Assembly (NCBI GenBank): GCA_965219345.1
Contig: OZ244732.1
Span: 96,001 to 160,000 of the forward strand
DNA from: Nitrosopumilus sp.
Lineage (GTDB): Archaea; Thermoproteota; Nitrososphaeria; Nitrososphaerales; Nitrosopumilaceae
Direction of reading: 5' to 3'
DNA: 64,000 nt
A program made the translations under genes and the position numbers. Shown here piece by piece: positions 30,850 to 49,845 of this stretch (its first letter is position 1; each line of letters begins with the position of its first letter). The notes under the pieces were generated by a model. It was not told where the DNA came from. It did no database searches and was given only the letters and a program-made list of their open reading frames with translations.

Positions 30850-31530
30850 TTGAAAATTAGTGAAATTTTTGAATCCATTCAAGGTGAAGGAATTAATGCA
30901 GGAAAAGACTCAATTTTTATCCGAACTGCTCTATGTAATTTAAAATGCTCTTGGTGTGATACAAAATATACTTGGGATTGGGAAAATTTTGATTATGATA
31001 CTGAAGTTCATGAATTATCAATAGATGAAATAAAACAAAAATTAAAAAATTTTACTGCAAATAATATTGTAATTACTGGAGGCGAACCATTAATGCAACA
31101 AGAAGAATTGATCTCATTGATATCATCATTACCAAAAAAATTCTTTATAGAAATTGAAACAAATGGGACTATTCTTCCTTTGGATGAATTAGTTTCATTA
31201 ATTGATCAATGGAATGTATCCCCTAAAACTTCAAACTCTAATAATCTACTTGAACAGTGTGAGATTGCAAATTGTTATAATTTTTTCAAGAATAACCCAA
31301 AATCATTTTTTAAATTTGTCGTAGAAACTAAATCTGATATTTTAGAAATTAATGAACTTGTAAAAAAATATAATATTGATAAATCTAAAATCATTCTAAT
31401 GCCTCAATCTACTACGAAAGATGATTTAATATCAAAAGAACCTTTGGTACAATCTTTGTGTGAGAAAAATGGGTTTAGATACTCATCGAGGTTACATGTA
31501 TTAAAATGGGGAAATACTAGAGGCCGTTAG
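30850..31530 (+). CDS. queE: 7-carboxy-7-deazaguanine synthase (radical SAM)
   Basis: EIFESIQGEG, FIR..CNLKCSWCDT, ITGGEPL, IETNG, SPK, RLH. Confidence 0.93.
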   Translation: MKISEIFESIQGEGINAGKDSIFIRTALCNLKCSWCDTKYTWDWENFDYDTEVHELSIDEIKQKLKNFTANNIVITGGEPLMQQEELISLISSLPKKFFIEIETNGTILPLDELVSLIDQWNVSPKTSNSNNLLEQCEIANCYNFFKNNPKSFFKFVVETKSDILEINELVKKYNIDKSKIILMPQSTTKDDLISKEPLVQSLCEKNGFRYSSRLHVLKWGNTRGR

Positions 31531-31884
31531 TTATTTTGAAACTAAACAATAAGCTGAATTTCCTTCAAAAAATCTTACACTAGATAGCGGTATTTTTCCT
31601 TCAAGATTCTCGTAAATCCATGCTGCAATGTTTTCAGAAGTAGGAAAGTCAAATAATTTATCCAGATCTTTATGGTCTAGTTGGCTGATCACATTCCAAC
31701 ATGTTTTCTTCATTTCATCAAAATCTAAGACCATATTGTCTTGATAAGTAGGGCCTTTATCCACCTCACCTTCCACTTCGACAATTATTCTTGAAGTATG
31801 TCCATGGGGTTGCCCACATTTTGGATGCCCCTTTAATGTATGGGCAAAGTCAATCTCAAATTCTACGCCTAATTTTGTTTTCAT
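31531..31884 (-). CDS. queD: 6-carboxy-5,6,7,8-tetrahydropterin synthase
   Basis: AH.L..HPKCGQPHGH, MVLDF, LDHKDL, PTSENIA, FE. Confidence 0.93.
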   Translation of the reverse strand: MKTKLGVEFEIDFAHTLKGHPKCGQPHGHTSRIIVEVEGEVDKGPTYQDNMVLDFDEMKKTCWNVISQLDHKDLDKLFDFPTSENIAAWIYENLEGKIPLSSVRFFEGNSAYCLVSK

Positions 31885-31962: not shown

Positions 31963-32712
31963 ATGAAAACTTGTCCTTGTCCTTGTGGTTGTACTGCTGT
32001 AGCTAATTCACTTGAAGAAAAAGAGAGAATTTTTGGGTGGAGAGGAAAAATCATTCAATCGTATTGTAAAAAATGTAGATATGTATCTCATTCACAAAAT
32101 CCACATACTGAAAATGTAAATCCTATGGTTGATATTATTTTTAAAGGAATTAACCGAGATTATAAATTTACTAATGATTATATTTCAAAGCTTCCAAGAT
32201 ATGATAAAAATGGAAAACTCTTAAGTCATAATATGAAAAATAAATTAGCAAAACAATATTTACTAAATAAAAACCATCTTTTTGTATCACATTTTTTAAA
32301 ATTACTTGATGAATCAGAACCCTATATTGAAGAAGAAAAATTTTTAAAGTTATTTGAAATTTATAATTTTCATACTAAAAAACCAGAAAAAGAAAGTTTT
32401 TTCAATTTTGTAATTTCAGAATCTAAAGAAATTAGTCTTAAACAAGAATTAAATCCAAAAAAACAAATTTTCGTAATTTTGAAAATTTACCAAACGATTA
32501 CTGAAACATATGTAAAAATTCTATCTGAAAAATTAAAAAAATCACCTGCAATAATCATTAGTTTTGTAAGTGATATACATCAAGATTTTATTGAAAATAA
32601 TGATCAAATTTGTATTTTTGATCGTGATATGATTCAATTCTTATTAGAATATAGAGATGATAGACTCAAATTATTTGATGTAGTATTTAATTCAGAAAAG
32701 AATTCAACATAA
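31963..32712 (+). CDS. Hypothetical protein with N-terminal Cys-rich zinc finger
   Basis: CPCPCGC...FGWR...QSYCKKCR; TAATG overlap with the next gene. Confidence 0.7.
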   Translation: MKTCPCPCGCTAVANSLEEKERIFGWRGKIIQSYCKKCRYVSHSQNPHTENVNPMVDIIFKGINRDYKFTNDYISKLPRYDKNGKLLSHNMKNKLAKQYLLNKNHLFVSHFLKLLDESEPYIEEEKFLKLFEIYNFHTKKPEKESFFNFVISESKEISLKQELNPKKQIFVILKIYQTITETYVKILSEKLKKSPAIIISFVSDIHQDFIENNDQICIFDRDMIQFLLEYRDDRLKLFDVVFNSEKNST

Positions 32713-35012
32713 TGCCTCCTAATAAGAAATCTACCGCATACGACAAAATCAACATTGAAGAATTCACAAATGATTGGAATTCTGGAATGAGTTTAGTTGA
32801 TCTAGCTAGAAAATACAACTTTTCCTATCCTGAAAAAGCAAAAAGAATTGGTCAAAAACTTGGTTTGAAAAAACAAAAAAATCTAACGTTTTTCGATAAA
32901 TTTCTAAAAGATTCACGAAAAACTAATGAGCTAATAACAATGTATGCTGATGAATCTATAACTATTTCCAAAATTACTACTCACTTTGGGTTTACCGATA
33001 ATGGATATGTTTCTAGACTTGTTAAAAAAATTGGAATTACTCCACGAAGAGGTGGCCAAGGTAGTATAGAGAAATTTAAGGAATCTAAAAATGAATTTAT
33101 AGAAATGTGGAATGATAATGTTCTCAAAAAAATAATAGCAAAAAAATTTAATATTAGTTATCCAACTGTTAGTTTATGGAGAAAAAGACTCGGTTTAGAA
33201 CCTAGAAGTTTAGGGAGAATTAGGCCTGAATCATTATCAGAAAAAATCGAATTATTATTACTTGAAAATTTAGGCGCTTTAACAACAAAAGAAATAAAAA
33301 AAATATTGAATATTTCGACTGTACATCTTGCTAATTGTTTAAATCTCGAAAAAATTCAAAGACTATCTTTAACTATGCATGTAACTGGTAGGCTGTATCG
33401 CAAACCTAGTGATTATTTTGGTGATTATACTGGACAATCAATTGTGTATTTGCGTGGCATGAATGATAGTTTGATTTTAAAACTATCAAAAATTCTACAA
33501 ACTGGTCGTATGTTTAAAAATAATCTACTCAAGAAAGCAAATTATAATTTTATGATTTCTAGACTAACTGAATCTGAAAAAGATATTGAAAATCGATCAC
33601 AACAATTGTATGGTCTAATACATTTCAAAAATAACCAAAACAAACTTGAATCTATTGTAGAATCACAATTAAAAAAATATCGAATAATTACGAACACATC
33701 AGAATTAATTTCTAGAATAGAGTCAAATGATTCACTAATACCAAAGATCTTGAGTGAAAAGCCTAAATCAAAATTTTATGGAAGAAAATTTGAACCTAAA
33801 TTAGTTATAAAAGAACTAGATTCGTCATATCCTGATGACCAAAAAAGACTCGTTCAAGAAATATTTACCCCATTTAATTTCATTTGTAGAACATCAAATG
33901 ATGAATATTTTGACTTGGAAATAACTTCAGATGATAAATTTTTAATAAAATTAATACTGCATCAACAGCTTACTACCACTAGTCTAAAAATATTTCATAA
34001 TAAATTGCAAGGACAGAAGGGAATTATAATAAATTTTGAATCTATCTCTGAATCTGTTAAAAAACTAGAATATGAAAATATTAGCATTTTGGCAAATGCT
34101 GATTTATTATTATTATTAAACTCATTAGAATTTTTACCTGTAAGGGCAAAATCTTTTGCAAAAATTACTTTTGGAGAGGATAAGGAAAAAATTATTTTTT
34201 GTGAAAATATAGATTTTGAAACTAATATTGCTACAGTGAGTGATTCTGATCATAATACAAAAAAAATATTAATAAAATTTTTAAAACAAATTGAATTACC
34301 AGAAAATGTAGGTAATTCAGATTATTTTAATTTTATTGAAAAATTCAAAACAATATCTATTATTGAAAATATCTCTACTATGGACGAATGTATTGTGAAT
34401 GTTACAAGAGATATTCTAAATAGACATGGAGATATTCTGATTACTTCACAAGTTGATTCTTATATTACTAAAATTTCACTTCTTTACAATTTATTTGATG
34501 AAAAAATTGGTGATGATCATCATGTCACTAGTATTGGTATACTGCGAAATAAGCTAATTCAATGTAATTGTTTATCATGGGAATCTCAAGATTATATTGT
34601 TTTATGTAAACATTCTATTGCATTATTATTTCATTTATGGACAGGGGATATTAATAAATATGATAATGTTGTTGGGGGGGAAACCATTGAGAACTTTTTA
34701 GATTATGTTAATTTCTTAATTAATTATTCTATTAAGATAGAAGAATTTTGGTTTGAAAAAATAGATGGTAAAAAAATCAATCATCATTTAATTCATTATG
34801 CAATTTGTAATCTTATACATGAAAATTATAAGACAACATCTTTTTTCCTTGATTGCGATATTGCTGAAAAGATTGAATTAGAGAATTTAATGGCTGAATA
34901 CAAAAATGAAAAAATAAAATTATTTGAATCTGTAAGAAAACTATCTTCTGAACAAAAAACATTACTTTTGAATACGCTTTTTGCTCAGTTTAGAGATGCA
35001 TACAAAAATTAA
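32712..35012 (+). CDS. Multi-HTH protein with possible degenerate restriction-endonuclease fold and C-terminal SWIM Zn finger
   Basis: Three HTH-like repeats (e.g. IAKKFNISYPTVSLWRKRLGL); CNC-x11-CKH SWIM motif. Confidence 0.7.
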   Translation: MPPNKKSTAYDKINIEEFTNDWNSGMSLVDLARKYNFSYPEKAKRIGQKLGLKKQKNLTFFDKFLKDSRKTNELITMYADESITISKITTHFGFTDNGYVSRLVKKIGITPRRGGQGSIEKFKESKNEFIEMWNDNVLKKIIAKKFNISYPTVSLWRKRLGLEPRSLGRIRPESLSEKIELLLLENLGALTTKEIKKILNISTVHLANCLNLEKIQRLSLTMHVTGRLYRKPSDYFGDYTGQSIVYLRGMNDSLILKLSKILQTGRMFKNNLLKKANYNFMISRLTESEKDIENRSQQLYGLIHFKNNQNKLESIVESQLKKYRIITNTSELISRIESNDSLIPKILSEKPKSKFYGRKFEPKLVIKELDSSYPDDQKRLVQEIFTPFNFICRTSNDEYFDLEITSDDKFLIKLILHQQLTTTSLKIFHNKLQGQKGIIINFESISESVKKLEYENISILANADLLLLLNSLEFLPVRAKSFAKITFGEDKEKIIFCENIDFETNIATVSDSDHNTKKILIKFLKQIELPENVGNSDYFNFIEKFKTISIIENISTMDECIVNVTRDILNRHGDILITSQVDSYITKISLLYNLFDEKIGDDHHVTSIGILRNKLIQCNCLSWESQDYIVLCKHSIALLFHLWTGDINKYDNVVGGETIENFLDYVNFLINYSIKIEEFWFEKIDGKKINHHLIHYAICNLIHENYKTTSFFLDCDIAEKIELENLMAEYKNEKIKLFESVRKLSSEQKTLLLNTLFAQFRDAYKN

Positions 35013-35051: not shown

Positions 35052-37577
35052 ATGCAAATTAATATTCTCATACGTATGTTAATTGAAAAATATGGTTTAA
35101 AGGCAATTCCATTTCAATCTCAAGGCTCAGAATCTGGAAAATACCCTTTTGTTCCATCTGAATCATTTAATGAATTAGTATCCGAAATTGAAAAAATCCA
35201 AGAACAAAAAGATTCTGGTGCAATAATAGTTCAAGGGCCACAAGGGAGTGGAAAGACAGCTACTAGAAAAGGTCTTTTTGAGGCATTTTCATCAAAATCG
35301 GGGGTTGGCATCATTACTATACATCTATCTTCCCTTGATTTGAAAGATTTAGCATGGTCTATAATAGATGAGGCAAAAAAACAGAATTATATTGATAATG
35401 GCTTTCTTGAAAAAAACTCAGAAGGTGAAGAATTTAAAAATTTTACAAAACCTAAACTAGAACAAATAATTACTAAAGTGCTAGAACAAATTGTATCAAA
35501 AAATGAATTGGGAATTTTAATTATCGATGAATTTGATATTATTTCTCAGCCTACTTTTCATGATACAAATGATCAAACTATTTTTCTTCATGCTATTACA
35601 AATATTTTAAACTCTATTAATGAATCAAAAATAATTCAAGAAAAATCATTTTGTACTATACTTGCACAAACTGATAGAAGCTCTGAAGACTTCAGAAACT
35701 ATATTTCCGATAGACACAAACCTCTTTCAACTAGATTAAAGAGAAATATCAATATCAACTATAACTTTGATGTAACAAAAAAAATTATTCTAAAAAGATT
35801 AGAAACTGAACAGTTATCTGGATTTGAAAAACCTAATGGAAATGAATTATTCCCTCTAGATGAGGAAATTTTAAAATCCCTTTATGATAAAATTAATCAT
35901 TTCACACAAAGTAATTCAATGAAAGCATTCAGAGACATGGAACAAATCTTACACGATTCAATTGAAAAATCATTAGAAAATAATCTACCAAAAGTTGAAA
36001 TGAATATTATCCAAGAAATTTTTACTCGTATATCTCCTAAATTTGATTATAATCCTAAAGAAAATAGGAGGAAAATATCCATTGAAACATCTAATGAATT
36101 AAAGGGTGTAATGAAAGACCCAGATCAAAATAGGTCTAATTGTATATATTTGAATGGAATTAAAACTGCTATGGAATATTGGGAGGCAAGAGAATACTCG
36201 TCAGTCGAATCAAATCTTGCATCTTCAAGATATGAAAATGAAGAAATGGGCATTTTTATTAGCAGTATTAAGATAAACTTACGAACTACTGATAGATCTA
36301 AATACGCAAAAAATATTTTTTGGTACACTGTCTCAAAATCTGAAGATAAACCTCCATTAAATGATGGTGACTTTAAACAAATTAATTTATTTTTAGAAGA
36401 AAATAAATCTGAACAAATTGGTTGCCAATACTCTATTCTGACAATTTTTTCAGAAGAATTTGCTGGAAAATCAGAACAAGAATTACAAAGTGAATTAATT
36501 CCTACTGTTGATCGAATTTTTTACAGAGGAAATTCATTCAAACAAGCTATAGCAGGAATATATTTATCACAATCTGATGAAGAACGGGAAGAATTTAGAG
36601 ACGAATGGGATACTCACCTTCACAAATTTTGTGCTAATACTTTAGGTTCAACACTATTTGATCTTGGAGCAAAAATTGACAGTAGACATATATCATTAAT
36701 TCAATATTTGTATGCAAAAACGATTGTTAAACAAAAATTTAAGAAAGATGATTGGTTATTTTGGGGTAAAAAACTTTCTCCCGGAAAAATGATTAGAGAT
36801 GATGTATTTAAACAAATTAAACTTTTGGGATTTACCGATGATGAGTGTAACGCTTTTGTACCAAGAAATTTAAAATCTCTTAAATCTTTGATTGATTCAA
36901 AAGATGGACAAGATTCACTTTCAAACGATGAAATTGAAAATTATTTTGAAAATAATTATACGCTTAACGCAGCTAAATTATTGGGAATTTTGACTAAAGA
37001 AAATCGACTGTATGATATTACTTTACTAAAAGAAAGAATTTCTAATGAATTAATTGATGATATTGATAATGCATTACCCGAAATTGAAACCACTACTATG
37101 TCTGATAGTTTGAAAATGTTAAATCTCTTAAAAGAAACATTTGAAAAAATTGATGAAGAAGATGATTATATCAAAAAAGTTGTTTCGTTACAATTCATTC
37201 TGAAGCAATCACCTCTTTTATTGTCTGATATTGGATCTGCAAGTGGTGGTGAATCTGCAAGTGGTGGTGAATCTGCAAGTGGTGGTGAATCTGCAGGTGG
37301 TGGTGAATCTGCAGGTGGTGGTGAATCTGCAGGTGGTGGTGAATCTGCAGGTGGTGGTGAATCTGCAGGTGGTGGTGAATCTGCAGGAATAGAGATAACC
37401 AAATTCATGCTCATAGAGACTTGTAAAAATATTCTAGGCGGTGGGCAAAAATTAAGCCTCTCAACTCTAAAAAAAGAAATAGGTAAAAAACCTGGATTTG
37501 AAGATCAAAGCAAATGGGCTGGTGAGCTTGCAAAATTAATCCTAAATGACATTCTACTAATTACAATTGATGAGTGA
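35052..37577 (+). CDS. Large P-loop ATPase (DpdH/BrxD-like position)
   Basis: Walker A GPQGSGKT, Walker B ILIIDEFD, PLSTRL Arg-finger-like motif. Confidence 0.8.
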   Translation: MQINILIRMLIEKYGLKAIPFQSQGSESGKYPFVPSESFNELVSEIEKIQEQKDSGAIIVQGPQGSGKTATRKGLFEAFSSKSGVGIITIHLSSLDLKDLAWSIIDEAKKQNYIDNGFLEKNSEGEEFKNFTKPKLEQIITKVLEQIVSKNELGILIIDEFDIISQPTFHDTNDQTIFLHAITNILNSINESKIIQEKSFCTILAQTDRSSEDFRNYISDRHKPLSTRLKRNININYNFDVTKKIILKRLETEQLSGFEKPNGNELFPLDEEILKSLYDKINHFTQSNSMKAFRDMEQILHDSIEKSLENNLPKVEMNIIQEIFTRISPKFDYNPKENRRKISIETSNELKGVMKDPDQNRSNCIYLNGIKTAMEYWEAREYSSVESNLASSRYENEEMGIFISSIKINLRTTDRSKYAKNIFWYTVSKSEDKPPLNDGDFKQINLFLEENKSEQIGCQYSILTIFSEEFAGKSEQELQSELIPTVDRIFYRGNSFKQAIAGIYLSQSDEEREEFRDEWDTHLHKFCANTLGSTLFDLGAKIDSRHISLIQYLYAKTIVKQKFKKDDWLFWGKKLSPGKMIRDDVFKQIKLLGFTDDECNAFVPRNLKSLKSLIDSKDGQDSLSNDEIENYFENNYTLNAAKLLGILTKENRLYDITLLKERISNELIDDIDNALPEIETTTMSDSLKMLNLLKETFEKIDEEDDYIKKVVSLQFILKQSPLLLSDIGSASGGESASGGESASGGESAGGGESAGGGESAGGGESAGGGESAGGGESAGIEITKFMLIETCKNILGGGQKLSLSTLKKEIGKKPGFEDQSKWAGELAKLILNDILLITIDE
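37236..37388 (+). repeat. In-frame 18-bp tandem repeat, 8.5 copies (SASGGE x3, SAGGGE x5)
   Basis: tctgca(a/g)gtggtggtgaa read directly. Confidence 0.97.
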
Positions 37578-38560
37578 TACAAATAAATCAAAATATAATC
37601 AAGGCACCAGCTGTAGATAACTTAAATGATTTGAAAGATATTATTAAAAGTCTTGAATATAATTCCATTCCTTACAGCTATATTGACAAACGACGTCTCG
37701 AAAATCTTTTAGAAAATAAAAAACTTTCAAAAGATAATTATGATATTATTTGTAATTGGAAAATTGAACAAGACATTCATGATAACAAAGGGGATTTACA
37801 ATCAATTGTCTCACTGATGAAATCTCTTGGAATAATTATAACTGAAAAAATACAGAGAGATAACTTGGAACAACCACTTGGCTTTGCTGGTCCCATGCTC
37901 AATTCATTTATTGCTAAATCTGTTGATGCTGTAAAATTAACTGAGATAGGCCAAGTTTTGTGTAATTTACTTGAAGAAACTAATACTGAATCTTTAATTG
38001 AATATGATAATCTTTTGTTTTGGAGATTCTTACACAGTAACATTACTCACAATTTTCAAAAATTAATTGAAGATAATGATTCATATAATAAAGGAGTTGA
38101 TGTTGTGTTACAAAAAATTGAAATGGATTCTAGGTCTGCAAATTATTTTTTGAAATGGACTAGTTATTTTGAATTGCTCGGAATTGGATCAAAACTTCTT
38201 ATCCAAAACAAAGTTGCGAAAAAAATAATTTTTTGTACTATTTTTGAATTAAATAAATTGGAATGTGGAATATATGGAATTCAGAAACTTTCAAATCATG
38301 TTTCAAAAGAACTTGATTTTTCAAATAATTTAATTAATTTCTTTTTGATTTTTGAAATCATCTTACGTCATATACAATTATCAAATGAACATGAAAAAGC
38401 ATTAGAGGGAACCACTTCATCTAGGGGTGAACGATCGTTGTCAAATTTTCCAAATGTAACTATGTTGAAAATCAATCACAAAATTAACTTCAATTCAATA
38501 ATGTCTCATGTTTCAAACTCTGAATTAGCCACAATATGGAATATAGGTACAAAACCATGA
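37574..38560 (+). CDS. Hypothetical protein with winged-helix-like segment (DpdG-like size and position)
   Basis: SLG.I...KLTEIG wing motif, W..YFELL; overlaps both neighbours. Confidence 0.6.
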   Translation: MIQINQNIIKAPAVDNLNDLKDIIKSLEYNSIPYSYIDKRRLENLLENKKLSKDNYDIICNWKIEQDIHDNKGDLQSIVSLMKSLGIIITEKIQRDNLEQPLGFAGPMLNSFIAKSVDAVKLTEIGQVLCNLLEETNTESLIEYDNLLFWRFLHSNITHNFQKLIEDNDSYNKGVDVVLQKIEMDSRSANYFLKWTSYFELLGIGSKLLIQNKVAKKIIFCTIFELNKLECGIYGIQKLSNHVSKELDFSNNLINFFLIFEIILRHIQLSNEHEKALEGTTSSRGERSLSNFPNVTMLKINHKINFNSIMSHVSNSELATIWNIGTKP

Positions 38561-41247
38561 GTAATGGTGGAAATGTCGATATTGTAAGGGAAATTATTTA
38601 TGAACTAGAGAAAGATCTTATCAAAAAAAAGAAATTTTTAGATGATGATGGAAAGCCTATTTTTATCACTAATGTTGAAATTCAAAATCATAGTGAATTA
38701 CCCAATAATGATATAATTAATGCAATTAAAAAATTGAAAGATGATGAATTTATTGTTTTTGATAATCAACTCATTTCTCTTGAAGAGAGTGTTGAATTTT
38801 TAATTCGTTCTAGAATATATCACACCATTTGGTGTATTTATAAAACAGAAAATCGGCCAGCAATGGAACGTAATGTGGATGATTTTCAATACATCCGACA
38901 TATTAAACGAACACCATCCCAAAACCACAATTTAGATGAACTCTTTAATGATCCTGATGTTAAAAATATTCTTCGATGGGGAAAATCAGATCATCAATTA
39001 ATTGTTGAAATTATTAAACATCTAAAAAACACAACTAATTACAAAAAAATGAGTCAATTTCAGCTTAATTCTACTACAACTATCATCAAGAACCTTGATA
39101 CTCATAATGTTTCAAAAGGTCTTGCAATTGTAGCTGGTACAGGATCTGGAAAATCTTTTGCGTATCAATTCCCTTTGTTGCTTTGGATTTTACATAAAAA
39201 GATTAACAAGTATAATGATCTTATAAAATGCAATATCAAACCATCTCAACTATATGTTAATTGTTCAGCAATTCTTATTTTTCCAAGAAATTCCTTAGCA
39301 AGAGATCAAAATGATTCAATTAAAATCTTGATCGAAAAAATTAATGATTTTATTTTGAAAAATGTTCATGATAAAAATAAAAAAGAATTTCTTTTTATAA
39401 AAAATCCCATTACTGATTTTGGAAGTCGTGCTGGTAAATTAGATGAAGTTTATGGCACAGACACTAGATTGGGATATCCTGATCTGATTATCACTACTCC
39501 CTCCTCACTAAATCATAGATTGCTTAATCCTGAATGTCATCCTGTATTTCGAAATGGTGTAGATATAATATTATATGATGAAATTCACATATGGGAGGGA
39601 ATTAGTGGAGCTGAAATTGCTTCGTTAAACTCCCGACTGCAAAATTTGTTTAAAATAGATCCTCCAAAATATCCTCTTTTCATTGGTATATCTGCCACAA
39701 TTGATAAACCTGATCTTCATTGTCAAAAATTGTTTTGTCTATTGAAAAATGATCAAAAACCTTCAATAATAACTCAAAGTAATTTAGATGATACCAAAAT
39801 ATTTTCAATTGAACATCATTTAATTCTAAAACCTGCAAGTGGTCGTTTTGTTAATGGTGTTGCCATGGAATCTACATCTTGCTTAATACATAATAGGAGA
39901 GATGGTTTATCACAATATCATGATGATGTAAATAATGGAAGATTTGTTAATGCAGAAAATAAACCTAAAAGCATCACTTTTCTTGATTCATTAAATGGAT
40001 CAGCAAAATATACTTCTGATTTTAATGATTATGAAAATTTTAAATGGGCCCACGGAAATACTCCTCCTGCTCAAACTACTAGAGTAAAACGTACGTATTA
40101 TTTTTACAATCGACCCAAACAAGGACAAAGCGGAATACCTCATACATTTTCATGTGACAATTGTATAGATAGATCTAATCCTGAACTCTTTGATTGTGAA
40201 TTTTATAAAAATGGCCAATGTTGGTATTATTCTTTAGATGACGCTGGTCAATTCAATAATATGAGATTCGGAAACTGGCATCCGTTTGTACGGGGGTTGG
40301 TAGACATCCCAATTGACAATATACGATCAATAAGAGTATCTTCTCAAGAAAAAGCTCCAAAACCAACTGAAGACAAATACAATTATTTTAAGATGAATCA
40401 ACAAGTGAAGGTTTGGACTGCAGGTGAGAATCAATCTCACACATTTCGTTCTCAAATTGATCATGTTATTACAACGCCTACTCTAGAAGTTGGAGTTGAT
40501 TTTAACAATATTAAAGAAGTAATTCAAGTTGGCTCTATACGTTCACCTTCTACTTACAAACAAAAAGTTGGAAGAGGTGCCCGAGAAGGAAATCTCAAAG
40601 AAGGATTATTTGCAATGAGCATAATTGATGAATCTCCTTTATCCTATTATCATTTTAAACATTTTAAAAGGTTGATCACTTCTACTCTAGATCCGTTAAA
40701 ACTTGAAATTACTAATCCTAATGTGGTTCTCGCAAATGCATTTTTATCTATTTTTGATTTTCTTGCATTCAATGGAATTAATTTATTTAGAATAAAACTT
40801 GGACGGGGTAAATATTTGACAGACACTGAAATAGACACTAATTATAAGAATGCATTAACGTTGATCGACAACGACAAAACTAAAAAGTTTATTAAAAGTT
40901 TCCTAGATCAATTGGGTTTTCCTAATTCAGCTGCAAAAACCAATGATATAATTAATGATGTCAAAAATTTCTTGACAGAACTTTGTAAAAAAATTACTAT
41001 TAAAATACACGATAAAAACGAGACTCATACTCTGCATGAGTGGTTTATACGTTCTACTGAAGATCATACCACCTACGAAAATTTGATACACGAAGAAAAA
41101 TATGATGTTATTAAATCAACTGGAGATGAAACAGAAAAAATCCTTAATGCGATAGCGGATTTAAAAGATGTTTACACCAAATTCTTTCCTGGAGATGACT
41201 CAATTAGTAAAAAATTAGATTTGTTACGAGGTGAATTAATTGGATAA
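38536..41247 (+). CDS. SF2 DEAH helicase, DpdJ-N/DrmA-like
   Basis: FQ (Q motif), AGTGSGKS, FPRNSLARDQ, DEIH, ISATI, TPTLEVGVD, QKVGRGAR; probable start at 38557. Confidence 0.88.
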   Translation: MEYRYKTMSNGGNVDIVREIIYELEKDLIKKKKFLDDDGKPIFITNVEIQNHSELPNNDIINAIKKLKDDEFIVFDNQLISLEESVEFLIRSRIYHTIWCIYKTENRPAMERNVDDFQYIRHIKRTPSQNHNLDELFNDPDVKNILRWGKSDHQLIVEIIKHLKNTTNYKKMSQFQLNSTTTIIKNLDTHNVSKGLAIVAGTGSGKSFAYQFPLLLWILHKKINKYNDLIKCNIKPSQLYVNCSAILIFPRNSLARDQNDSIKILIEKINDFILKNVHDKNKKEFLFIKNPITDFGSRAGKLDEVYGTDTRLGYPDLIITTPSSLNHRLLNPECHPVFRNGVDIILYDEIHIWEGISGAEIASLNSRLQNLFKIDPPKYPLFIGISATIDKPDLHCQKLFCLLKNDQKPSIITQSNLDDTKIFSIEHHLILKPASGRFVNGVAMESTSCLIHNRRDGLSQYHDDVNNGRFVNAENKPKSITFLDSLNGSAKYTSDFNDYENFKWAHGNTPPAQTTRVKRTYYFYNRPKQGQSGIPHTFSCDNCIDRSNPELFDCEFYKNGQCWYYSLDDAGQFNNMRFGNWHPFVRGLVDIPIDNIRSIRVSSQEKAPKPTEDKYNYFKMNQQVKVWTAGENQSHTFRSQIDHVITTPTLEVGVDFNNIKEVIQVGSIRSPSTYKQKVGRGAREGNLKEGLFAMSIIDESPLSYYHFKHFKRLITSTLDPLKLEITNPNVVLANAFLSIFDFLAFNGINLFRIKLGRGKYLTDTEIDTNYKNALTLIDNDKTKKFIKSFLDQLGFPNSAAKTNDIINDVKNFLTELCKKITIKIHDKNETHTLHEWFIRSTEDHTTYENLIHEEKYDVIKSTGDETEKILNAIADLKDVYTKFFPGDDSISKKLDLLRGELIG

Positions 41248-43477
41248 CCTAGATGAAATTAAAGAAATGATTTCCATGAAAAAAAATGAATTAAATGATA
41301 TTGATAAAGAATTTGAACTTACTGGACCATTGATCACTTTAATGAATGCATTAAAAAAAATTAAAGAGATTAAATCGGTTAAAAGTAATACTGGTATTGA
41401 TTTAATTAATTTAGAAGTATACTTGTCTAAATTAACTGCGAATCATCAATCAGAACATCCTAAATATGACTATACTTTGTTTCCTCTACTTACTGGTTTA
41501 CCTAGACGTCCATATTCTAAAACTACTGATTATTTTGGAGGGGGGATAGGATCATTGATCCAAATTGAAAAAAAAGGCACTGGTCTGCCTCAAACTACAA
41601 TACCTGCAAACGATGTTTTTATTTCCATGTATCCTGGTTCTATTAGTTATAGATTTGGAGCATATAATCAAATTCGAATACCTTGTGGCCAATATTATGA
41701 GGATTTTGTTAGTCATTTACAAGGATTGCATAAATTATCCAAATCTCCGATTTCCACATTTGAAGACAATGATGTTTATGAGATAGAAAAAATCATTGGA
41801 ATTGCATTAGATATTATTAGGAATAGAAATCATGGCAACATCCCAATTTGTCCTAGGTGTTTGTCAATCAGTGTTTTTAGTGGACCACAAAGAGAACAAT
41901 GTGATCACATTAGAGATAAAACCGAATCTGTAGTAATGGTAAAAAATTTTCAACATCAACCAATTTTGAAAACAAAAGAAAATATTGATGAACGAAAAAT
42001 TCTTGAGTCAAAAAAGTTTACTTTTCCTCTTAATGAAATATTTGATAAGGTAGAATTTTTGGGAAACGCCCAAATTGTAACTGTTGCTACTGGATTTTCT
42101 AGACAAGCTTCATGGGGACAAGGTGCAAATGCTGGACATAATTCTGTTCATGTAAAATATAATCCATATGTTGGATATAAAATGGATACTAATGGAGTAA
42201 TATTCAAAATCAAAGAAATTCCTGAAAATTTTATTGATCAAATATTTGATGAATATTTTCTTGTTCGGGATATTTTAATTGATATTTTTGCAGAAAAAAT
42301 TGAAAAAATTATCCATGACAATGATAGATCAATTTTTGAATTAGAACTATGGTTATCTGGAATTATTAAAACACTCAATTTGGATTCTATTGATGATTCT
42401 TTTAATGTTAATGATGTTTTACAGGCTCTTCTTGGTTCAAATTTCAGGGAGAATTTTAAAAATAATATTGTTAGAGAGATAAGCTACTATTCACACATTC
42501 CAAATAATATTGGGCCTGATATAATTGATATTTTCAGTCAGGAGATAAACTCAGTATCCATTTCAATAGATGACTTAAAATTAAAAATTAAAGCTTTACT
42601 TAAAATTTCATTATCCTATTTAGCATATATGAGTGCATTAATAACATCTGGTTCGATGAACAAGGATGTAGATTTTATTTACCCTCAAGGGGCTAAAAAC
42701 GATGTTGTAATTTTTGACAGTGTTTCAAACGGTAATGGTGCTTCAAAATTAATTAATGATTATCTTATTGGAGAAGAAACGTCAGTTTCTCAAGAAAAAG
42801 GTTTACGTTCAAAATATTTCCAAGAGACTCTTTTTGAATTATTACTACCTTGCTCACAGGGTATTGCTGATAGAATTTTTTTCCAGAATTTAGATGATAA
42901 TTTTTCAAATTTCACTAGAAATGATTTGATTACTTATAGGTTAAATGAATTAAAAGAACAAAATAATTCTGCAACAGAGGAATTCAATCAAATAAAAAAT
43001 TCAAAAATTGAAAATATGTTTCCGATATCTATTGGAAAAAGACCTTTGCAAAAGCCTGATGGTGCCAATGTCGAAAATAAAAAAATCCAAGAAATTGCAC
43101 ATATCTGTATACACGGCTGTCCTGAATGTTTGCTTTTGAATAGTTATTCTGGACCTTCTATTCCTAGGTTGGAGCGATTTTATGTAAGCAAATATCTACT
43201 AGATCTTTATTTCAAATTTGTAACAGAGAAAATCCGTATAAGATCAAATGAAAGTATTTCGAATATTGAGAAAATTCTTAATCAATATGGTGTGATAATT
43301 ATTTCTCAAAAAATCACTGGAACTAACTGTGATTTTAGTGATTTGCTAACAAAAATTAATTCCTTAATTGGGGAAAAATTCAACAGTAAATTGGTAAAGT
43401 TTTCAGGAATTTGGTTTGATTGTCCAATTACAAAACCTTCTGATTTTAACATCTCTATTTTGGTAAGTGTGATATAA
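41240..43477 (+). CDS. DUF1998-like helicase partner (DpdJ-C/DrmB-like)
   Basis: CPRC, IFDSVSNGNGAS, CIHGCPECL typical of DUF1998 domains. Confidence 0.72.
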   Translation: MDNLDEIKEMISMKKNELNDIDKEFELTGPLITLMNALKKIKEIKSVKSNTGIDLINLEVYLSKLTANHQSEHPKYDYTLFPLLTGLPRRPYSKTTDYFGGGIGSLIQIEKKGTGLPQTTIPANDVFISMYPGSISYRFGAYNQIRIPCGQYYEDFVSHLQGLHKLSKSPISTFEDNDVYEIEKIIGIALDIIRNRNHGNIPICPRCLSISVFSGPQREQCDHIRDKTESVVMVKNFQHQPILKTKENIDERKILESKKFTFPLNEIFDKVEFLGNAQIVTVATGFSRQASWGQGANAGHNSVHVKYNPYVGYKMDTNGVIFKIKEIPENFIDQIFDEYFLVRDILIDIFAEKIEKIIHDNDRSIFELELWLSGIIKTLNLDSIDDSFNVNDVLQALLGSNFRENFKNNIVREISYYSHIPNNIGPDIIDIFSQEINSVSISIDDLKLKIKALLKISLSYLAYMSALITSGSMNKDVDFIYPQGAKNDVVIFDSVSNGNGASKLINDYLIGEETSVSQEKGLRSKYFQETLFELLLPCSQGIADRIFFQNLDDNFSNFTRNDLITYRLNELKEQNNSATEEFNQIKNSKIENMFPISIGKRPLQKPDGANVENKKIQEIAHICIHGCPECLLLNSYSGPSIPRLERFYVSKYLLDLYFKFVTEKIRIRSNESISNIEKILNQYGVIIISQKITGTNCDFSDLLTKINSLIGEKFNSKLVKFSGIWFDCPITKPSDFNISILVSVI

Positions 43478-44044: not shown

Positions 44045-45304
44045 TTATTTTCCAAAATAATACAAACCCATTCTTCTATCTATAGAATTACACCAAGTCG
44101 CTAATCCTAATAATAATGATACATCTTCTTTATCTTTCATAGAATACTTTTTTGATCTTTTCAAATCATTTACAATGTCATCAAAACTTTGGGGTGTATC
44201 AGATAACAGTTTTAACATGTAATTGTATTCTGGAATGTTTTCTTTTAATTTTTTATTCAACTTTGATTTACCTGATCTTTTTTCCAATGACTCTAAGAAA
44301 TCTTTTCCTTCATTACTAAGATAAACAACACCCTTACGTTTAGTTGTAAATTTTAACAATTCTCCTAATTTTGTATAGCTACCATTCTCTGTTTCATATC
44401 TTGAATGTAACAAATTTTTTAATTGAATTCCATCTTTAATTGATTCCAAAAATTTGGGAAATTTAGTAACTGAGATCTGGGGTGGTTTAAAATTACCTGT
44501 AACTGGACTTGTTTTTTTATAATCTACATTTTGTTTATTGCCTTTTTCTGATGAACTTAATGCTTTATTTGAAATAATAAAAGTAAAACTTCCATATCCT
44601 CGATATGATAAATCCACTCTTAATGGTAAATCATCACTCAAACTTAGTTTAACTTCTCCACATTGTGCTACTATCTCAGATACTGTTGTTAAATAATCTA
44701 AAATTGTCCAACTTTTTACATCTCTTCTAGGAATTTTATTTTTAAGTGAATCAAATATTTGCCCTGAAAGATCAATGGTTTTACGATATGATAATCCCCC
44801 CTCATCTGAACCTACAATAAATTTTCCATCTTCCATACCAAAAAAGATCTCACGTGACACTGTTGATGCTTTAACTATCTCCAAAAATTCACTGGATGGA
44901 ATTGTTATTTGTGCATCATAATTCAAACTTTGAGGCTCTGGTAAGTTGAATTGTTCCTCCTCAAGCCATTCTAATTCATATCTAGTCTTTCCACTATTTA
45001 CAAAATTTAGTGCAATGTTTCTTTTTCTAATATCCAAATATAGTGTCTTATCTTTAGTAATTTTTGAAATGACTTGTCTTAATTTACCAATGTCTGCTTC
45101 ACTTGTAAATTTCTCAGAATTCCAACTAAACCCATCAAAAAATGAAGGTTGTAATTTTATGTCAATATAGCAAAAATCATGAGGATCAATACTTCTAATC
45201 CTTATCCCATTAGAACTTACATCAAATCTAGCTACGTCTGTAAATTTTGTAATTCCACGAAAGATAGCTTTGAATAATGATAAATCATCAATTTTTAATT
45301 CCAT
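44045..45304 (-). CDS. PCNA sliding-clamp domain fused to a C-terminal winged-helix-like domain
   Basis: First ~245 aa follow PCNA (FKAIFRGI...GIRIRSIDPHDFCYIDIKL...F; LDYL; DLPLRVD..GSFTFIIS); linker; ~145-aa tail with LGELLKF...VYLSNEGKDFL wing. Confidence 0.8.
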   Translation of the reverse strand: MELKIDDLSLFKAIFRGITKFTDVARFDVSSNGIRIRSIDPHDFCYIDIKLQPSFFDGFSWNSEKFTSEADIGKLRQVISKITKDKTLYLDIRKRNIALNFVNSGKTRYELEWLEEEQFNLPEPQSLNYDAQITIPSSEFLEIVKASTVSREIFFGMEDGKFIVGSDEGGLSYRKTIDLSGQIFDSLKNKIPRRDVKSWTILDYLTTVSEIVAQCGEVKLSLSDDLPLRVDLSYRGYGSFTFIISNKALSSSEKGNKQNVDYKKTSPVTGNFKPPQISVTKFPKFLESIKDGIQLKNLLHSRYETENGSYTKLGELLKFTTKRKGVVYLSNEGKDFLESLEKRSGKSKLNKKLKENIPEYNYMLKLLSDTPQSFDDIVNDLKRSKKYSMKDKEDVSLLLGLATWCNSIDRRMGLYYFGK

Positions 45305-46354
45305 TTACTTTCTACCAAACAATACATTTGAAATACTATTGTATTTTCTCTTTAATTTAGCATATCTCCATAAATAATCTAGAGATGATCTCTTGTAAAT
45401 CTCGTTTAGATATTTTTCATATTCTTCTTGCCCTTGTTTGATTAGTTTTTTTGCTAACTTTCTTTCATTTTTCATGACATGATCATTGTGAATTGCTCTC
45501 GATTTCCAATCATCCCATAGTGAATCTTGATTTACTCTACAAACTGGGCAATCACATTCTTGTAATTTTTTCAAATCTTTTCTTTTTAATAATGCACCGC
45601 CTCCAAACTTGGCTGTGTTATTGCCTACATACCTCTCAGCCGTGCCGGGTAATACAATCTGACCAAATGCAGCCTTTCTTCTATATCCTGATGAATCTGT
45701 ACTGTCTATTCCTAGATAGAATCCAAAATGTAACGAAAGTGGTGATGAACCTAATCCCATAATGTGGACATTGTAATCTGTATTTTGTTTTACACTTTCT
45801 ACAGTATACGATAACATATCAATTAGATTTTTGTTTGGTTGTCTATCTCCAAAAAATCCATTATAGTTTGTAAATTCAGGATTAACAATACTTCCAACTG
45901 CTACATAATCTGAATTCCCATACTTTTGAATCCATTTCAAATTTTTCATTAATGATTTTTTATTCCATGCATGAATTGAAGGAACTAGTTTTTCATCCAA
46001 ATTTGTAGATGATTGCCAATACTGAATATTTTTTGCAGTCTCTTTCCATCTTTTTTGCATTGTTGAGGGAGACATTCCATTTTTAAATGGATAATCAAAT
46101 GGAATTGTTTTATCAGGTTCTAAAGTTTCTTGAATATCTATAATTTTTTCTAAATCTAATTCTATATCTTGCATATTTGCTGTAAATGCTCCATTATCTA
46201 GAAACAATTTCCCAGGATTGTATGGAAGTTTTGGTTCTTCTTTTTTGTAATAGTTGATAGCAGAATCCATAATGTGATCTTTTCTACGATCTGTTTTTAC
46301 AGGAGCAGTTGGTTGTTCGCCCATCCATAACAATACATCTTCATTTTGAGACAT
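45305..46354 (-). CDS. dpdA: tRNA-guanine transglycosylase paralogue, DpdA-like (putative DNA 7-deazaguanine inserting enzyme)
   Basis: FLDNGAF, PFDYP, HIMGLG, DSTDSS (nucleophile Asp), CDCPVC...H Zn site; 349 aa with no PUA domain; near queD/queE, helicase and PLD. Confidence 0.72.
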   Translation of the reverse strand: MSQNEDVLLWMGEQPTAPVKTDRRKDHIMDSAINYYKKEEPKLPYNPGKLFLDNGAFTANMQDIELDLEKIIDIQETLEPDKTIPFDYPFKNGMSPSTMQKRWKETAKNIQYWQSSTNLDEKLVPSIHAWNKKSLMKNLKWIQKYGNSDYVAVGSIVNPEFTNYNGFFGDRQPNKNLIDMLSYTVESVKQNTDYNVHIMGLGSSPLSLHFGFYLGIDSTDSSGYRRKAAFGQIVLPGTAERYVGNNTAKFGGGALLKRKDLKKLQECDCPVCRVNQDSLWDDWKSRAIHNDHVMKNERKLAKKLIKQGQEEYEKYLNEIYKRSSLDYLWRYAKLKRKYNSISNVLFGRK

Positions 46355-47921: not shown

Positions 47922-48809
47922 ATGAATTATGATTGTCCCTTAAAATGTGGAAAAACCATCTATTTTGAAGAAATCAAATTCAATGATGGATTTTCATTTA
48001 ACATTCCATGTGAAAATAAACTTGGAACAATTCATGATTGTAAATATGATAATATAGAAAATTGGGAAAATTCTGGACATGTAATATATGATCATCCATT
48101 ATTCAAATCAAACAAGATTTTGCAAGAAGCTATCACTAAAAAAGAAAACGGAAATTTAGAAGAATACAAAAAAAATATTCAAAAAGCAATTAAAGAAGAT
48201 CCTGGATATGATAGTCTAAATTATTTGTCAGAGGCATATCAGGTAAATAATGAACTTGATGACGCACTAACTGCCACAATAACTCATTTGAGATTTGAAC
48301 CAAATCAGTGGGAAAGCATGATAGAAAAAGCGCAAATATTGACTGAAATGAAAAAAGAACCAGAAGCAATTGCTCATTTGAAAAAATGTATTGAAAACTA
48401 TGATCTGTTTAATGATCCTGAAGAATCTCCACGAGGAGGATGGGATTATAGATCTGGGTATTCCGGATATGGTTATTTGTATTATTGTATTGGAATAACA
48501 TATTTGTCAATGCGAGATTCATCAAATGCCAAGATCTATTTGGAATTAGCAGTTGCATGGATAAATGAAAATAACTCTGATAAAGTTTTGACAAAAGATT
48601 GGTTTAGTGAAGCATATTATAGATTAGGAGATGTCTTTGAAAATTTACGTGAACATAAAAAATCTTTAGAGATGAATTCAAAGGGAAATAATTTCTTAGA
48701 TGCAAAAAAAATTCAAAAGAAAATAAAAGAATCAATGACAATCAATACTATTGTGACAGATACTGCAAATAGTATCCGTGAAAGGAAAAAAATACATTTG
48801 AACCTATAA
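47922..48809 (+). CDS. TPR protein with N-terminal putative Zn finger
   Basis: CPLKCG...HDC, then several TPR-like repeats (AYYRLGDVF). Confidence 0.75.
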   Translation: MNYDCPLKCGKTIYFEEIKFNDGFSFNIPCENKLGTIHDCKYDNIENWENSGHVIYDHPLFKSNKILQEAITKKENGNLEEYKKNIQKAIKEDPGYDSLNYLSEAYQVNNELDDALTATITHLRFEPNQWESMIEKAQILTEMKKEPEAIAHLKKCIENYDLFNDPEESPRGGWDYRSGYSGYGYLYYCIGITYLSMRDSSNAKIYLELAVAWINENNSDKVLTKDWFSEAYYRLGDVFENLREHKKSLEMNSKGNNFLDAKKIQKKIKESMTINTIVTDTANSIRERKKIHLNL

Positions 48810-48814
48810 CTAAC

Positions 48815-49267
48815 ATGACGCAAGATGATCTTATAGCAATTCTTGAAATAGATTTTAGGGATCTGATTATGTATAAATTAACAGAAAAAAATTTTAAAAA
48901 TAGGGTTAATATACAAATCTATGAATCTGCTGTAAAATCACAGAATAGGGAATTGGAAAATGTTTTGTTCACCGCTGATGAAGAAAAACATAGAGTAATA
49001 GATTATTTTGAGTTTGGAGATTTAATTGGTGTTTTTGGGCACGCCTCTAATTATACGAAAAGTTTTGAAAAAATTTTTGGGGATAGTGATATATTTTTTG
49101 GATACCTGAAACAAATAGTACAATTAAGAAATCCAATTGAACATCACAGAGGAAAGATATTCAGAGAATATCTCAATGAAGAAAATAACTTTTTATTAAA
49201 AAAAGCTTTCAAGTATTTTCAATTTTATATCAAAAAACACAAAAATCATAATAGCATTCCATCTTAG
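48815..49267 (+). CDS. Swt1-like HEPN protein (putative RNase)
   Basis: LE..FR.LI, IDY..FGDL, F..IFGD, LRNPIEH (RxxxxH). Confidence 0.75.
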   Translation: MTQDDLIAILEIDFRDLIMYKLTEKNFKNRVNIQIYESAVKSQNRELENVLFTADEEKHRVIDYFEFGDLIGVFGHASNYTKSFEKIFGDSDIFFGYLKQIVQLRNPIEHHRGKIFREYLNEENNFLLKKAFKYFQFYIKKHKNHNSIPS

Positions 49268-49845
49268 ATTGGAGTGATTGGAACTCCTTCTGTATTTGCA
49301 GCTTTAATCAGTAGCCTATCTCGCGTAATCAATTGAACTTGTTCAGTTAAATGCATTTGAAGTAAAATACAATCGGTTACAGAAAGTGGTACTCCCTTTT
49401 CGTTAACATATTTTTTTGAATCAAATATTTCTCTTGCCTTGATCATTTCTTTATCTGCATGATCTATTTGGATTTTTTTGACTGTACCTATCTTTCTTAA
49501 TGATTTAATAATTTGATCTTGAGTTAATGACATACTGTACTCTTGTTTTTCCATATGGATGGTTTCAATTAGTATTCTATCAACTAAGACTAGATTTTTC
49601 TCAGTGCCTTGAATTTTTTTTGTAAGCTTTTCAACAATATTTTCATTATTGATTATTTCATGAATTATCATTGAATCTAGTAACAAATAGGTTATTTTTT
49701 CAGTACTTTGCTCTGATGTTTTGATATTTTGATTAGATATTTTGATGGTTGATAATTCTTTTTCGGATTTTTTATCAAGAAATTTGGTTGCTTCTTCTCT
49801 TCTTTTTCTATCCTTTTCTTTTCTTCGCTCTCTTTTAGACATCAA
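49264..49845 (-). CDS. PIN-domain ribonuclease (VapC-like)
   Basis: LLLDSM, ILIET, LSVTDC, LITRDRLL acidic tetrad. Confidence 0.82.
   Translation of the reverse strand: MMSKRERRKEKDRKRREEATKFLDKKSEKELSTIKISNQNIKTSEQSTEKITYLLLDSMIIHEIINNENIVEKLTKKIQGTEKNLVLVDRILIETIHMEKQEYSMSLTQDQIIKSLRKIGTVKKIQIDHADKEMIKAREIFDSKKYVNEKGVPLSVTDCILLQMHLTEQVQLITRDRLLIKAANTEGVPITPI

Follow-up and report, generated by a model that had tools for sequence, protein, structure and literature searches.

A transglycosylase-family gene paired with a PCNA–double-winged-helix fusion gene: a candidate DNA-modification module in a Dpd-related island of Nitrosopumilus sp.

Introduction

Bacteria are known to use restriction-modification based on 7-deazaguanine bases, and for haloarchaea a class resembling Dpd has recently been named; how the transglycosylase of such systems finds and works on duplex DNA is poorly understood. 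We analysed a stretch of 64,000 nucleotides (nt) from Nitrosopumilus sp. (contig OZ244732.1, positions 96,001-160,000), here called the window, and give coordinates as window positions unless a locus or genome is named. Our subject is a pair of adjoining genes within it. One encodes a protein of 349 amino acids (aa) of the tRNA-guanine transglycosylase (TGT) family, and the other encodes a PCNA paralogue fused to a winged-helix (wH) tail. The two may form the modification module of an archaeal system related to Dpd.

In the accessible text of the reports concerned, bacterial DpdA needs the ParB/DndB-like ATPase DpdB (PMC10164549, PMC5699537), and the haloarchaeal Dpd-like systems, termed BRIGADE, occur solely in halophilic archaea and usually carry two YprA helicases (10.1101/2025.09.15.676423). 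The Sulfolobus virus STSV-2 is described, in the available part of its report, as encoding a DpdA together with an ArcS2 made of DUF5591 only, and its DNA as carrying the deoxynucleoside of 7-carboxy-7-deazaguanine (dCDG) at 0.04% of G (10.1101/2023.04.13.536721). Cap10 of type IV CBASS, as far as the accessible text of its report describes it, has lost the zinc site, depends on the QueC-like Cap9 encoded in its operon and acts on a target protein with a Gly-rich N-terminal extension (10.1101/2025.04.06.647259).

Results

The TAA stop codon of the TGT gene (45307-45305) lies immediately before the ATG of the fusion gene (45304-45302) on the same strand (Table 1). An earlier note on this DNA had described this tight coupling and had named conservation of the pairing elsewhere as a test. 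We compared the window with 35 other fusion-bearing loci, two of them from species genomes (a Nitrosopumilus metagenome-assembled genome [MAG] and a Bathyarchaeia MAG) and 33 metagenomic; loci are labelled L and genomes G, the window's own genome being G000, with contig C1. By tblastn, 34 of the 35 loci had the TGT gene immediately upstream of the fusion gene and in the same orientation. The sequence of the sole exception, L025, starts 20 nt before its fusion gene. The distance from the TGT stop codon to the start of the fusion alignment was −1 to 28 nt in all 28 loci in which both gene ends were present, with the genes abutting or overlapping in 12. Some junctions are identical or nearly so (L031/L032; L035/L049/L050; L021/L022), and these near-duplicates among the metagenomic loci make the independent observations fewer than 35. 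The pairing is more than chance. Identity to the window proteins across these loci was 51–87% for the TGT protein and 28–79% for the fusion, making the enzyme the better-conserved partner. The pair also remained together where the neighbouring effector block (below) was swapped from type A to type B or, in Nitrosopumilus-type loci, inverted, which argues that the fusion protein serves the enzyme and not the nucleases.

The window proteins were compared with Pfam, PADLOC, NCBIfam, PHROG and PDB profiles. Residues 1–247 of the fusion protein matched the NCBIfam sliding-clamp model NF002220 from end to end (E 3e-25, model positions 1–244 of 246), and residues 2–241 matched the solved Sulfolobus PCNA 2izo_B (E 8.7e-14). 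Structural evidence came from the ESM-Atlas model of P0015, a homologue 70% identical to the window fusion, whose residues 1–252 superposed on PCNA clusters with TM scores (TM) of 0.84–0.88 over 242–250 residues. By profile and model, the N-terminal ~245 aa of the fusion are two tandem PCNA-fold domains, the clamp fold on which the earlier note had rested its proposal. The clamp match scored 89 bits against a curated cut-off of 284 bits for housekeeping PCNAs, a shortfall that marks it as a divergent PCNA paralogue and not an orthologue of the replicative clamp. The gene count points the same way: 29 of 30 relatives had exactly one PCNA_N match and the remaining relative (82% complete) had none, whereas the window genome had three, comprising the ordinary PCNA (C1:624049), the fusion and one further accessory copy. 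Housekeeping PCNAs lack a tail of this kind, as the note had stated.

The tail is joined to the PCNA part by a basic linker. Residues 275–418 of the P0015 model superposed with TM 0.67–0.73 on AAA_assoc_C (0.72) and on WHD_halo_double/halobacterial double winged-helix clusters, and, within the same range, on wH modules of restriction-endonuclease-like proteins. The Pfam AAA_assoc_C model gave weak matches in all five tails tested (E 9e-5 to 0.03), each below the gathering score of 27.6 bits. The single wH helix-turn-helix read by the earlier note was right in kind and wrong in number, as the tail consists of two winged helices and resembles AAA_assoc_C; the note's reading of the other domains (a TGT paralogue, a PCNA part and a linker) stood unchanged. 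A PDB profile search with the tail returned nothing significant, and its best matches, a queuosine-salvage protein (E 0.62) and MarR (E 0.71), were treated as chance.

The fusion proteins form a family of 63 clusters of 333–450 aa, 59 of which covered 100% of the query, with identity down to 29%. Two motifs show little or no variation, RSIDPHDFCY in the first PCNA domain and LPEP in the connector between the domains, and the C-terminus is conserved (...ATWC..DRK.GLYYF). Among 44 members, the median isoelectric point was a mildly acidic 6.3 for the PCNA part and basic for the linker (~10) and the tail (9.5), and the linker varied between 11 and 24 aa.

Homologues of the tail were also found in other Thermoproteota, where they were rejected as PCNA fusions. 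They are stand-alone proteins of ~225–310 aa, present in 12 of 23 genomes of one crenarchaeal family and 10 of 12 of another (L054, L055, L058, L072; L094:6983-7657). Those of L054, L055, L072 and L094 adjoin a helicase gene, which we take to be XPB-like.

The second accessory PCNA of the window genome (249 aa; G000:C1:1737049-1737798 = L096:8050-8799, reverse strand) matched PCNA_N at 1.5e-16 and PCNA_C at 1.6e-11. It lies in a patch of uneven GC content (0.29–0.50), convergent with an open reading frame (ORF) resembling Eco57I/N6 DNA methylases and two ORFs without assigned function, with a DDE transposase nearby, and may be another instance of a clamp paralogue next to an enzyme that modifies DNA.

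The TGT protein matched Pfam TGT (PF01702) at E 4.4e-16, with 59 bits against a cut-off of 26.3, and lacks the C1, C2 and PUA domains of archaeal TGT (arcTGT), so that the tRNA-binding C-terminal domains are absent. Its NCBIfam matches (E ≤ 0.01) were to TgtA and the general TGT superfamily only. Residues D53, D220, C267, C269, C272 and H289 were invariant in all 27 orthologues compared. A profile of the family matched arcTGT 1iq8 in the PDB (E 1.3e-4), with an alignment spanning the LDxGAF, SxDS and CxCxxC...HN motifs. Judged by its sequence, the protein is the catalytic domain of a TGT-superfamily enzyme, in which both catalytic aspartates and the base pocket are present. It looks active, since all 27 orthologues keep D53, D220 and the CxCxxC...H zinc site, and these align with the arcTGT motifs. 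A canonical arcTGT is encoded elsewhere in the window genome (2.5e-79, 505-aa frame); together with the presence of the catalytic domain alone, this indicates that the window protein is not the tRNA enzyme. In a phage collection the TGT protein matched only the TGTs of the Sulfolobus viruses STSV1, STSV2 and STSV4 (27% identity, E 3e-11). The TGT family ends in a conserved R-I-S-x-V-L-F-G motif, which is not a canonical PCNA-interacting protein (PIP) box; with the LPEP connector of the fusion, it is a candidate contact between the two proteins.

A profile of the 27 TGT orthologues was run over 401 genomes of the same phylum, where strong orthologues occurred only in the window genome and three others. 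Weaker matches in crenarchaeal genomes were rejected as members of the same system, since they belong to a separate paralogue that stands in unrelated contexts and, judging by the G011 copy, lacks the zinc site. This paralogue (~300–350 aa) was found in G011 (L094:9702-10658) and 48 further genomes, including 22 of 23 of one family. It was recognised by the TGT profile (E 1e-16 to 1e-27) and barely by Pfam TGT, and the G011 copy keeps the DSGGYQ and SxDS...RxKAAYGxxxLPG..ER motifs without the zinc site. All three paralogue-bearing genomes checked (G067, G011 and G167) also encode a canonical arcTGT.

The fused gene, sought with a tail profile, is sporadic: it was present in one of the same 401 genomes, the window's own, and absent from the 56 other genomes of the same family that were sampled. 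A scan of 185,579 species genomes recovered only two with the fusion. Going by source names, the archaeal lineages in which the pair is conserved are Nitrosopumilaceae, Nitrosocaldaceae, Conexivisphaerales, Bathyarchaeia, Verstraetearchaeota and one Asgard MAG. Scans of 2.9 million viral contigs returned no member of either the fusion family or the TGT family, and the fusion protein had no match in the phage collection.

Two more distant loci carry relatives of the enzyme. At L091 (G206:C24, 2072-10852) a TGT gene (344 aa, 48% identical) overlaps by 4 nt a gene for a tail-less PCNA-like protein of 255 aa, which hhalign matched to the PCNA portion of the fusion proteins with a probability of 89.8% (E 1.8e-6, 203 columns). 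These are followed, on the same strand, by genes for a DUF5591 protein (243 aa, 6.4e-12; the catalytic core of archaeosine synthase, ArcS), a HerA of 554 aa and a 1463-aa AAA+ ATPase with a long coiled-coil-like C-terminus. At L093 (G394:C19, 1825-10667) a single operon encodes NurA (8.5e-6), HerA, a 1407-aa ATPase (AAA+), a DUF5591-like protein and a TGT protein (31% identical), with no PCNA-like gene at the locus. A PCNA-like partner is thus more widespread than the fused form but not universal among relatives of the enzyme. G344 contains a degraded remnant.

The note had presented the two genes as a stand-alone module. They proved instead to belong to a conserved seven-gene system, whose other members include matches to DpdJ (1.1e-29) and DpdK (1.9e-8). 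ORFs were clustered by BLAST across 36 loci, and neighbouring genes in other loci were identified by tblastn with window proteins. Among 25 loci readable beyond the fusion gene, 18 were of type A and six of type B, and one (L034) had another neighbour. The type A order is TGT, fusion, AAA+ ATPase (18 loci), a ~315-aa protein (14), helicase (13), a ~750–800-aa protein (11) and a phospholipase D (PLD)-family nuclease (10). More distant loci have the seven genes in a single orientation, with the AAA+ gene directly following the fusion gene; in the window, L016, L018 and L030, the five-gene block is inverted relative to the pair. In type B, as far as contigs allow, the pair is followed by a ~299-aa protein (cluster 7), a 1195-aa ATPase (five loci), NurA (four; 5.3e-9) and HerA (two; 3.1e-32 in Pfam, 1.8e-49 in PADLOC). 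Over its N-terminal AAA+ region, the 1195-aa ATPase is homologous to the type A ATPase (hhalign 91%, E 9.5e-7). Homology between the ~315-aa and ~299-aa proteins was not upheld (hhalign probability 7.6%).

Table 1 Positions of the gene pair, its domains and the island genes in the window
Feature	Position	Strand	Evidence or remark
Extra queE (7-carboxy-7-deazaguanine synthase)	30850..31530	+	NCBIfam QueE models 1e-34 to 6e-24
Extra queD (6-carboxytetrahydropterin synthase)	31531..31884	-	Pfam PTPS 3.9e-23, NCBIfam QueD 3.9e-22
766-aa protein with weak helix-turn-helix (HTH) match (cluster 9)	32712..35012	+	Nitrosopumilus-type loci only; sub-threshold Pfam HTH
AAA+ ATPase, 841 aa (cluster 2)	35052..37577	+	Pfam AAA_22 7.6e-7
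328-aa conserved protein, no assigned function (cluster 3)	37574..38560	+	14 loci, always between AAA+ and helicase genes
DExH helicase, DpdJ/YprA-like, 903 aa	38536..41247	+	PADLOC DpdJ 1.1e-29, NCBIfam DpdJ 1.3e-27
745-aa CxxC-pair protein, putative DUF1998/MZB half of a split YprA-type helicase	41240..43477	+	cluster 5, 11 loci
Small PLD-family nuclease, DpdK-like, 182 aa	43477..44025	+	PADLOC DpdK 1.9e-8; HxK...GSxN motif
PCNA–double-wH fusion gene, 419 aa	44045..45304	-	
Double winged-helix tail, aa 275-419, AAA_assoc_C (PF09821) type	44048..44482	-	Atlas matches, weak Pfam
Basic linker, aa 251-274	44483..44554	-	between PCNA domain and tail
PCNA domain, aa 1-250	44555..45304	-	NCBIfam, PDB, Atlas structure of P0015
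TGT-family (DpdA-like) base-exchange enzyme, 349 aa	45305..46354	-	Pfam PF01702, catalytic domain only
Metallo-beta-lactamase/beta-CASP nuclease-like, 472 aa	46426..47844	-	Pfam Lactamase_B_2 3.2e-13, RMMBL 1.9e-4

In the window, the pair lies within a low-GC stretch (~30–56 kb; GC 0.26–0.31 against ~0.35). A family profile of the AAA+ ATPase matched TnsC (1.4e-4), RFC3 (0.007) and ORC4/Cdc6 (0.03–0.04) in the PDB. Inside this gene (37214-37411), ~8–9 copies of an 18-nt unit form an in-frame tandem array that encodes a linker rich in Gly, Ser, Glu and Ala; no other repeat of note emerged from the search for direct repeats around the island. The 328-aa protein had no Pfam, PADLOC, PHROG or PDB match, including a PDB search with its family profile. 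The 903-aa helicase also matched DrmA, SngC and BrxHII, more weakly than DpdJ, and its orthologue in L028 matched DpdJ at 4.6e-59. While the window copy of the 745-aa protein itself had no Pfam or PADLOC match, the L028 member of its cluster passed Pfam MZB (PF09369; 2.6e-6, 28.5 bits against a cut-off of 24.2); the protein may be DrmB-like or may correspond to the C-terminal part of DpdJ. By these profile matches, the island would encode a helicase that belongs to the Dpd branch of the YprA family, together with a DUF1998 module. Orthologues of the PLD protein occur in 10 loci (cluster 6), the L028 copy matching DpdK at 2.5e-5. Directly after the PLD gene in L022, L028 (17754-18215) and L029 there is a nucleoside 2-deoxyribosyltransferase-like gene (Pfam 2.2e-21), and HAD-hydrolase genes are located close to the system in L024, L028 and L042.

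Homologues of the 766-aa protein were found in L016, L018 and L030 (tblastn and clustering). The beta-CASP-like gene just upstream of the TGT gene occupies the same place in L018 (57% identity), is present as fragments in L030 and L032, was found in none of the other loci and is possibly accessory. Other defence-flavoured island genes lie at 47922-49845 and 30329-30787; the island encodes a TPR protein (295 aa), a PIN-domain protein (193 aa), a NOV_C-like protein (152 aa) and an Abi_2-like/PDC-M34B-like protein (150 aa; PADLOC 5e-7).

The island copies of queD and queE are extra copies, since the window genome has queC adjacent to a second queE (30% identical to the island queE) and a second PTPS gene elsewhere. 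A DndB-family gene (G000:C1:1106045-1106779; Pfam 2.9e-15, 574-aa frame) on the same contig, ~1 Mb from the island, may belong to another DNA-modification system.

Discussion

Our best explanation, offered with modest confidence, is that the pair forms the modification module in an archaeal defence system of the restriction-modification type, with Dpd and haloarchaeal BRIGADE as its relatives. The TGT-family enzyme would exchange guanine for a 7-deazaguanine base in double-stranded DNA; this base would be preQ0 or a near precursor, supplied by the host QueC/D/E pathway and boosted in the window island by the extra queD and queE. The PCNA paralogue with its basic double-wH tail would take the DNA-handling role that DpdB has in bacteria, holding the enzyme on DNA and helping to choose or scan sites. 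The conserved AAA+ ATPase, TnsC/RFC/ORC-like, may load or regulate the clamp protein, a role that is possible but weakly supported. A swappable effector block would then attack unmarked DNA, using either the split DpdJ/YprA helicase with the DUF1998 protein and the DpdK-like PLD protein, or NurA and HerA.

Several observations favour DNA as the substrate: the TGT motifs, the lack of tRNA-binding domains, the extra queD and queE, the STSV relatives and the Dpd-type restriction neighbours. The related loci L091 and L093 both carry DUF5591. A constant pair beside alternative helicase and nuclease sets is the pattern of a modification module in modular defence systems. A more detailed picture is tentative and, in our estimate, somewhat doubtful: a private clamp would ring the DNA while its tail reads or grips the duplex, and a dimeric enzyme bound to it would be carried along the chromosome in processive self-marking, possibly after loading by the system's own AAA+ ATPase. 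Clamp and writer would in that case be a portable cassette for at least two unrelated effector sets.

Other results weigh against this explanation. Even with the threshold relaxed to E ≤ 10, the TGT profile found no PDB relative other than arcTGT, a tRNA enzyme, and across 164 TGT-family clusters source databases name every member a tRNA-ribosyltransferase or 'hypothetical'. At E ≤ 0.01 the TGT protein matched no curated DpdA model in PADLOC or NCBIfam, libraries that we take to contain such models and whose DpdF, DpdJ and DpdK models did give matches. Among some relatives of the enzyme the clamp appears dispensable, as L093 has none. A search for longer proteins found no fused TGT-PCNA polypeptide, which is weak evidence, and the likeness of the AAA+ ATPase to clamp loaders is marginal and mostly due to the P-loop. 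Finally, the earlier note had proposed a search for neighbourhoods combining a PCNA fusion, a TGT paralogue and queDE. The first two recurred together, but tblastn found neither queD nor queE in the other 35 loci, and their linkage is confined to the window.

The main rival would assign the fusion protein to sensing or restriction and not to modification. Acting as a clamp, or as a platform bound to DNA ends or forks, with a modification-reading tail, it would mark or track invading DNA and recruit the AAA+ ATPase, helicase and nuclease; adjacency to the TGT gene would then be a matter of operon economy or co-regulation. This arrangement seems to us unlikely, although it has several points in its favour. 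The tail fold matches wH modules that occur joined to restriction endonucleases (SRA-HNH, Mrr and FokI-type), and such domains can be modification readers according to the accessible text of one report (PMC11037411). In co-directional loci the AAA+ gene stands immediately after the fusion gene, and one TGT relative (L093) occurs in a NurA/HerA context without PCNA. The fusion nevertheless keeps company with the TGT gene through both the exchange of type A for type B and the inversion of the block, and the stop-start abutment involves the TGT gene and no effector gene.

It is improbable, in our view, that the TGT paralogue does not modify DNA at all but acts on a protein in the manner of Cap10 (perhaps on the PCNA fusion), acts on RNA, or removes bases as a glycosylase-like effector against deazaguanine-modified viruses. 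There are precedents in the accessible parts of two reports, which describe TGT-fold proteins repurposed for protein deazaguanylation in type IV CBASS (10.1101/2025.04.06.647259) and glycosylases directed against 7-deazaguanine-modified phages (10.1101/2025.10.29.685425), and the nearest solved relative is a tRNA enzyme. A Cap10-like role is unlikely because the zinc site is kept, the conserved block has no QueC-like (Cap9-like) gene and the fusion starts MELKI without a Gly-rich extension. An RNA substrate fits poorly with the absence of the tRNA-binding domains and with a full arcTGT elsewhere in the genome. Against base removal, the described Dag glycosylases have DNA-glycosylase folds and not the TGT fold, as far as the available text goes (10.1101/2025.10.29.685425), and the extra queD and queE and the DUF5591 partners fit insertion of deazaguanine. 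We regard it as very improbable that the block is no host defence system but serves the replication of an integrated virus or plasmid and its escape from restriction, with its own PCNA, an ORC/Cdc6-like initiator, a helicase and DpdA-like camouflage as in STSV. The low-GC island, the Sulfolobus viruses as nearest viral relatives of the TGT protein, virus clusters among the nearest PCNA neighbours by language-model features, the weak ORC/Cdc6 similarity of the AAA+ ATPase and a weak integrase-like match in a 249-aa ORF (E 0.004) would suit such an element. Neither family was seen among the viral contigs, however, the fusion was without a match in the phage collection, and no att-like direct repeats were found around the island. 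Profile scans of the conserved block showed defence hallmarks (YprA/DUF1998 and PLD, or NurA/HerA), but neither virion genes nor genes for a primase or polymerase, and no clear integrase gene. A defence island that moves horizontally is therefore favoured, and a provirus is not.

On the preferred explanation, in which the pair modifies DNA, the enzyme class and the restriction logic are already known; what is new is the clamp-type partner, its fusion to a double wH and a portable clamp-plus-writer cassette with two effector sets. If the clamp truly guides the enzyme, it would be the first prokaryotic sliding clamp dedicated to defence or epigenetic marking within the literature searched, with eukaryotic PCNA-DNMT1 as an analogue. 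The pair would then offer a simple two-protein system for base exchange on DNA, and 7-deazaguanine would be expected in the chromosomal DNA of ammonia-oxidising archaea, which is relevant to sequencing and to work on viruses and hosts in the ocean.

Comparison with known systems

Like Dpd, the window system has a TGT enzyme whose island moves horizontally and also encodes a DpdJ-like YprA helicase and a DpdK-like PLD protein; preQ0-pathway genes lie nearby in the window, but queD and queE were not found in the other 35 loci. It differs in that its TGT protein fails the DpdA models, the helicase is split from its DUF1998 part, and a PCNA–double-wH protein adjoins the transglycosylase where bacteria have DpdB. 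The PADLOC scan of 15 island ORFs gave no match to DpdA, DpdB, DpdC or DpdD-I, in agreement with the note's statement that no dpdB or dpdC is recognisable. BRIGADE is likewise archaeal and Dpd-related and, in the accessible text of its description, has deazaguanine genes, a BrxC-like ATPase, one or more YprA helicases and a small PLD nuclease. By that same account, the window system is unlike BRIGADE in having one split YprA helicase and in being hosted by Nitrososphaeria, Bathyarchaeia and other non-halophiles, and profile scans and locus clustering found no match to the BRIGADE hallmarks DpdG, DpdH(I) and BrxC.

The note's claim that the pairing had not been described agrees with our full-text literature searches, which returned no account of a TGT/DpdA-PCNA pairing; a search for DpdA with PCNA gave only an unrelated paper. 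The words PCNA and clamp are absent from the available text of the literature on Dpd, phage DpdA and YprA/BRIGADE (PMC6884629, PMC5699537, 10.1101/2025.09.15.676423), and PCNA, clamp, TGT and DpdA do not occur in the accessible main text on BRIGADE (10.1101/2025.09.15.676423), whose supplementary tables might list such neighbours.

The STSV-2 TGT is among the nearest phage-collection relatives of the window enzyme, and the pairing of TGT with DUF5591 recurs at L091 and L093. STSV-2, however, represents viral self-protection and the window a chromosomal system with nucleases, and the phage collection held no match to the PCNA-wH protein. DISARM is similar in having three separate genes (the DrmA helicase, the DUF1998 protein DrmB and the PLD protein DrmC), and the window helicase matches DrmA models too; its best match is nevertheless DpdJ, the proposed mark is deazaguanine and not methyl, and the block contains no methyltransferase. 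With the Cap10/Cap9 type IV CBASS the window system shares a TGT-fold protein in what would be a defence operon, but it has an invariant zinc site, no QueC-like gene in the conserved block and no Gly-rich N-terminus on the fusion.

Archaeal uracil-DNA glycosylases and eukaryotic DNMT1 are enzymes tethered to PCNA through PIP motifs, and they provide a precedent for a base-flipping or DNA-marking enzyme that rides on a sliding clamp. Those enzymes use the replicative clamp, whereas the window enzyme is encoded together with a private, tail-bearing PCNA paralogue that would form the ring and bind it.

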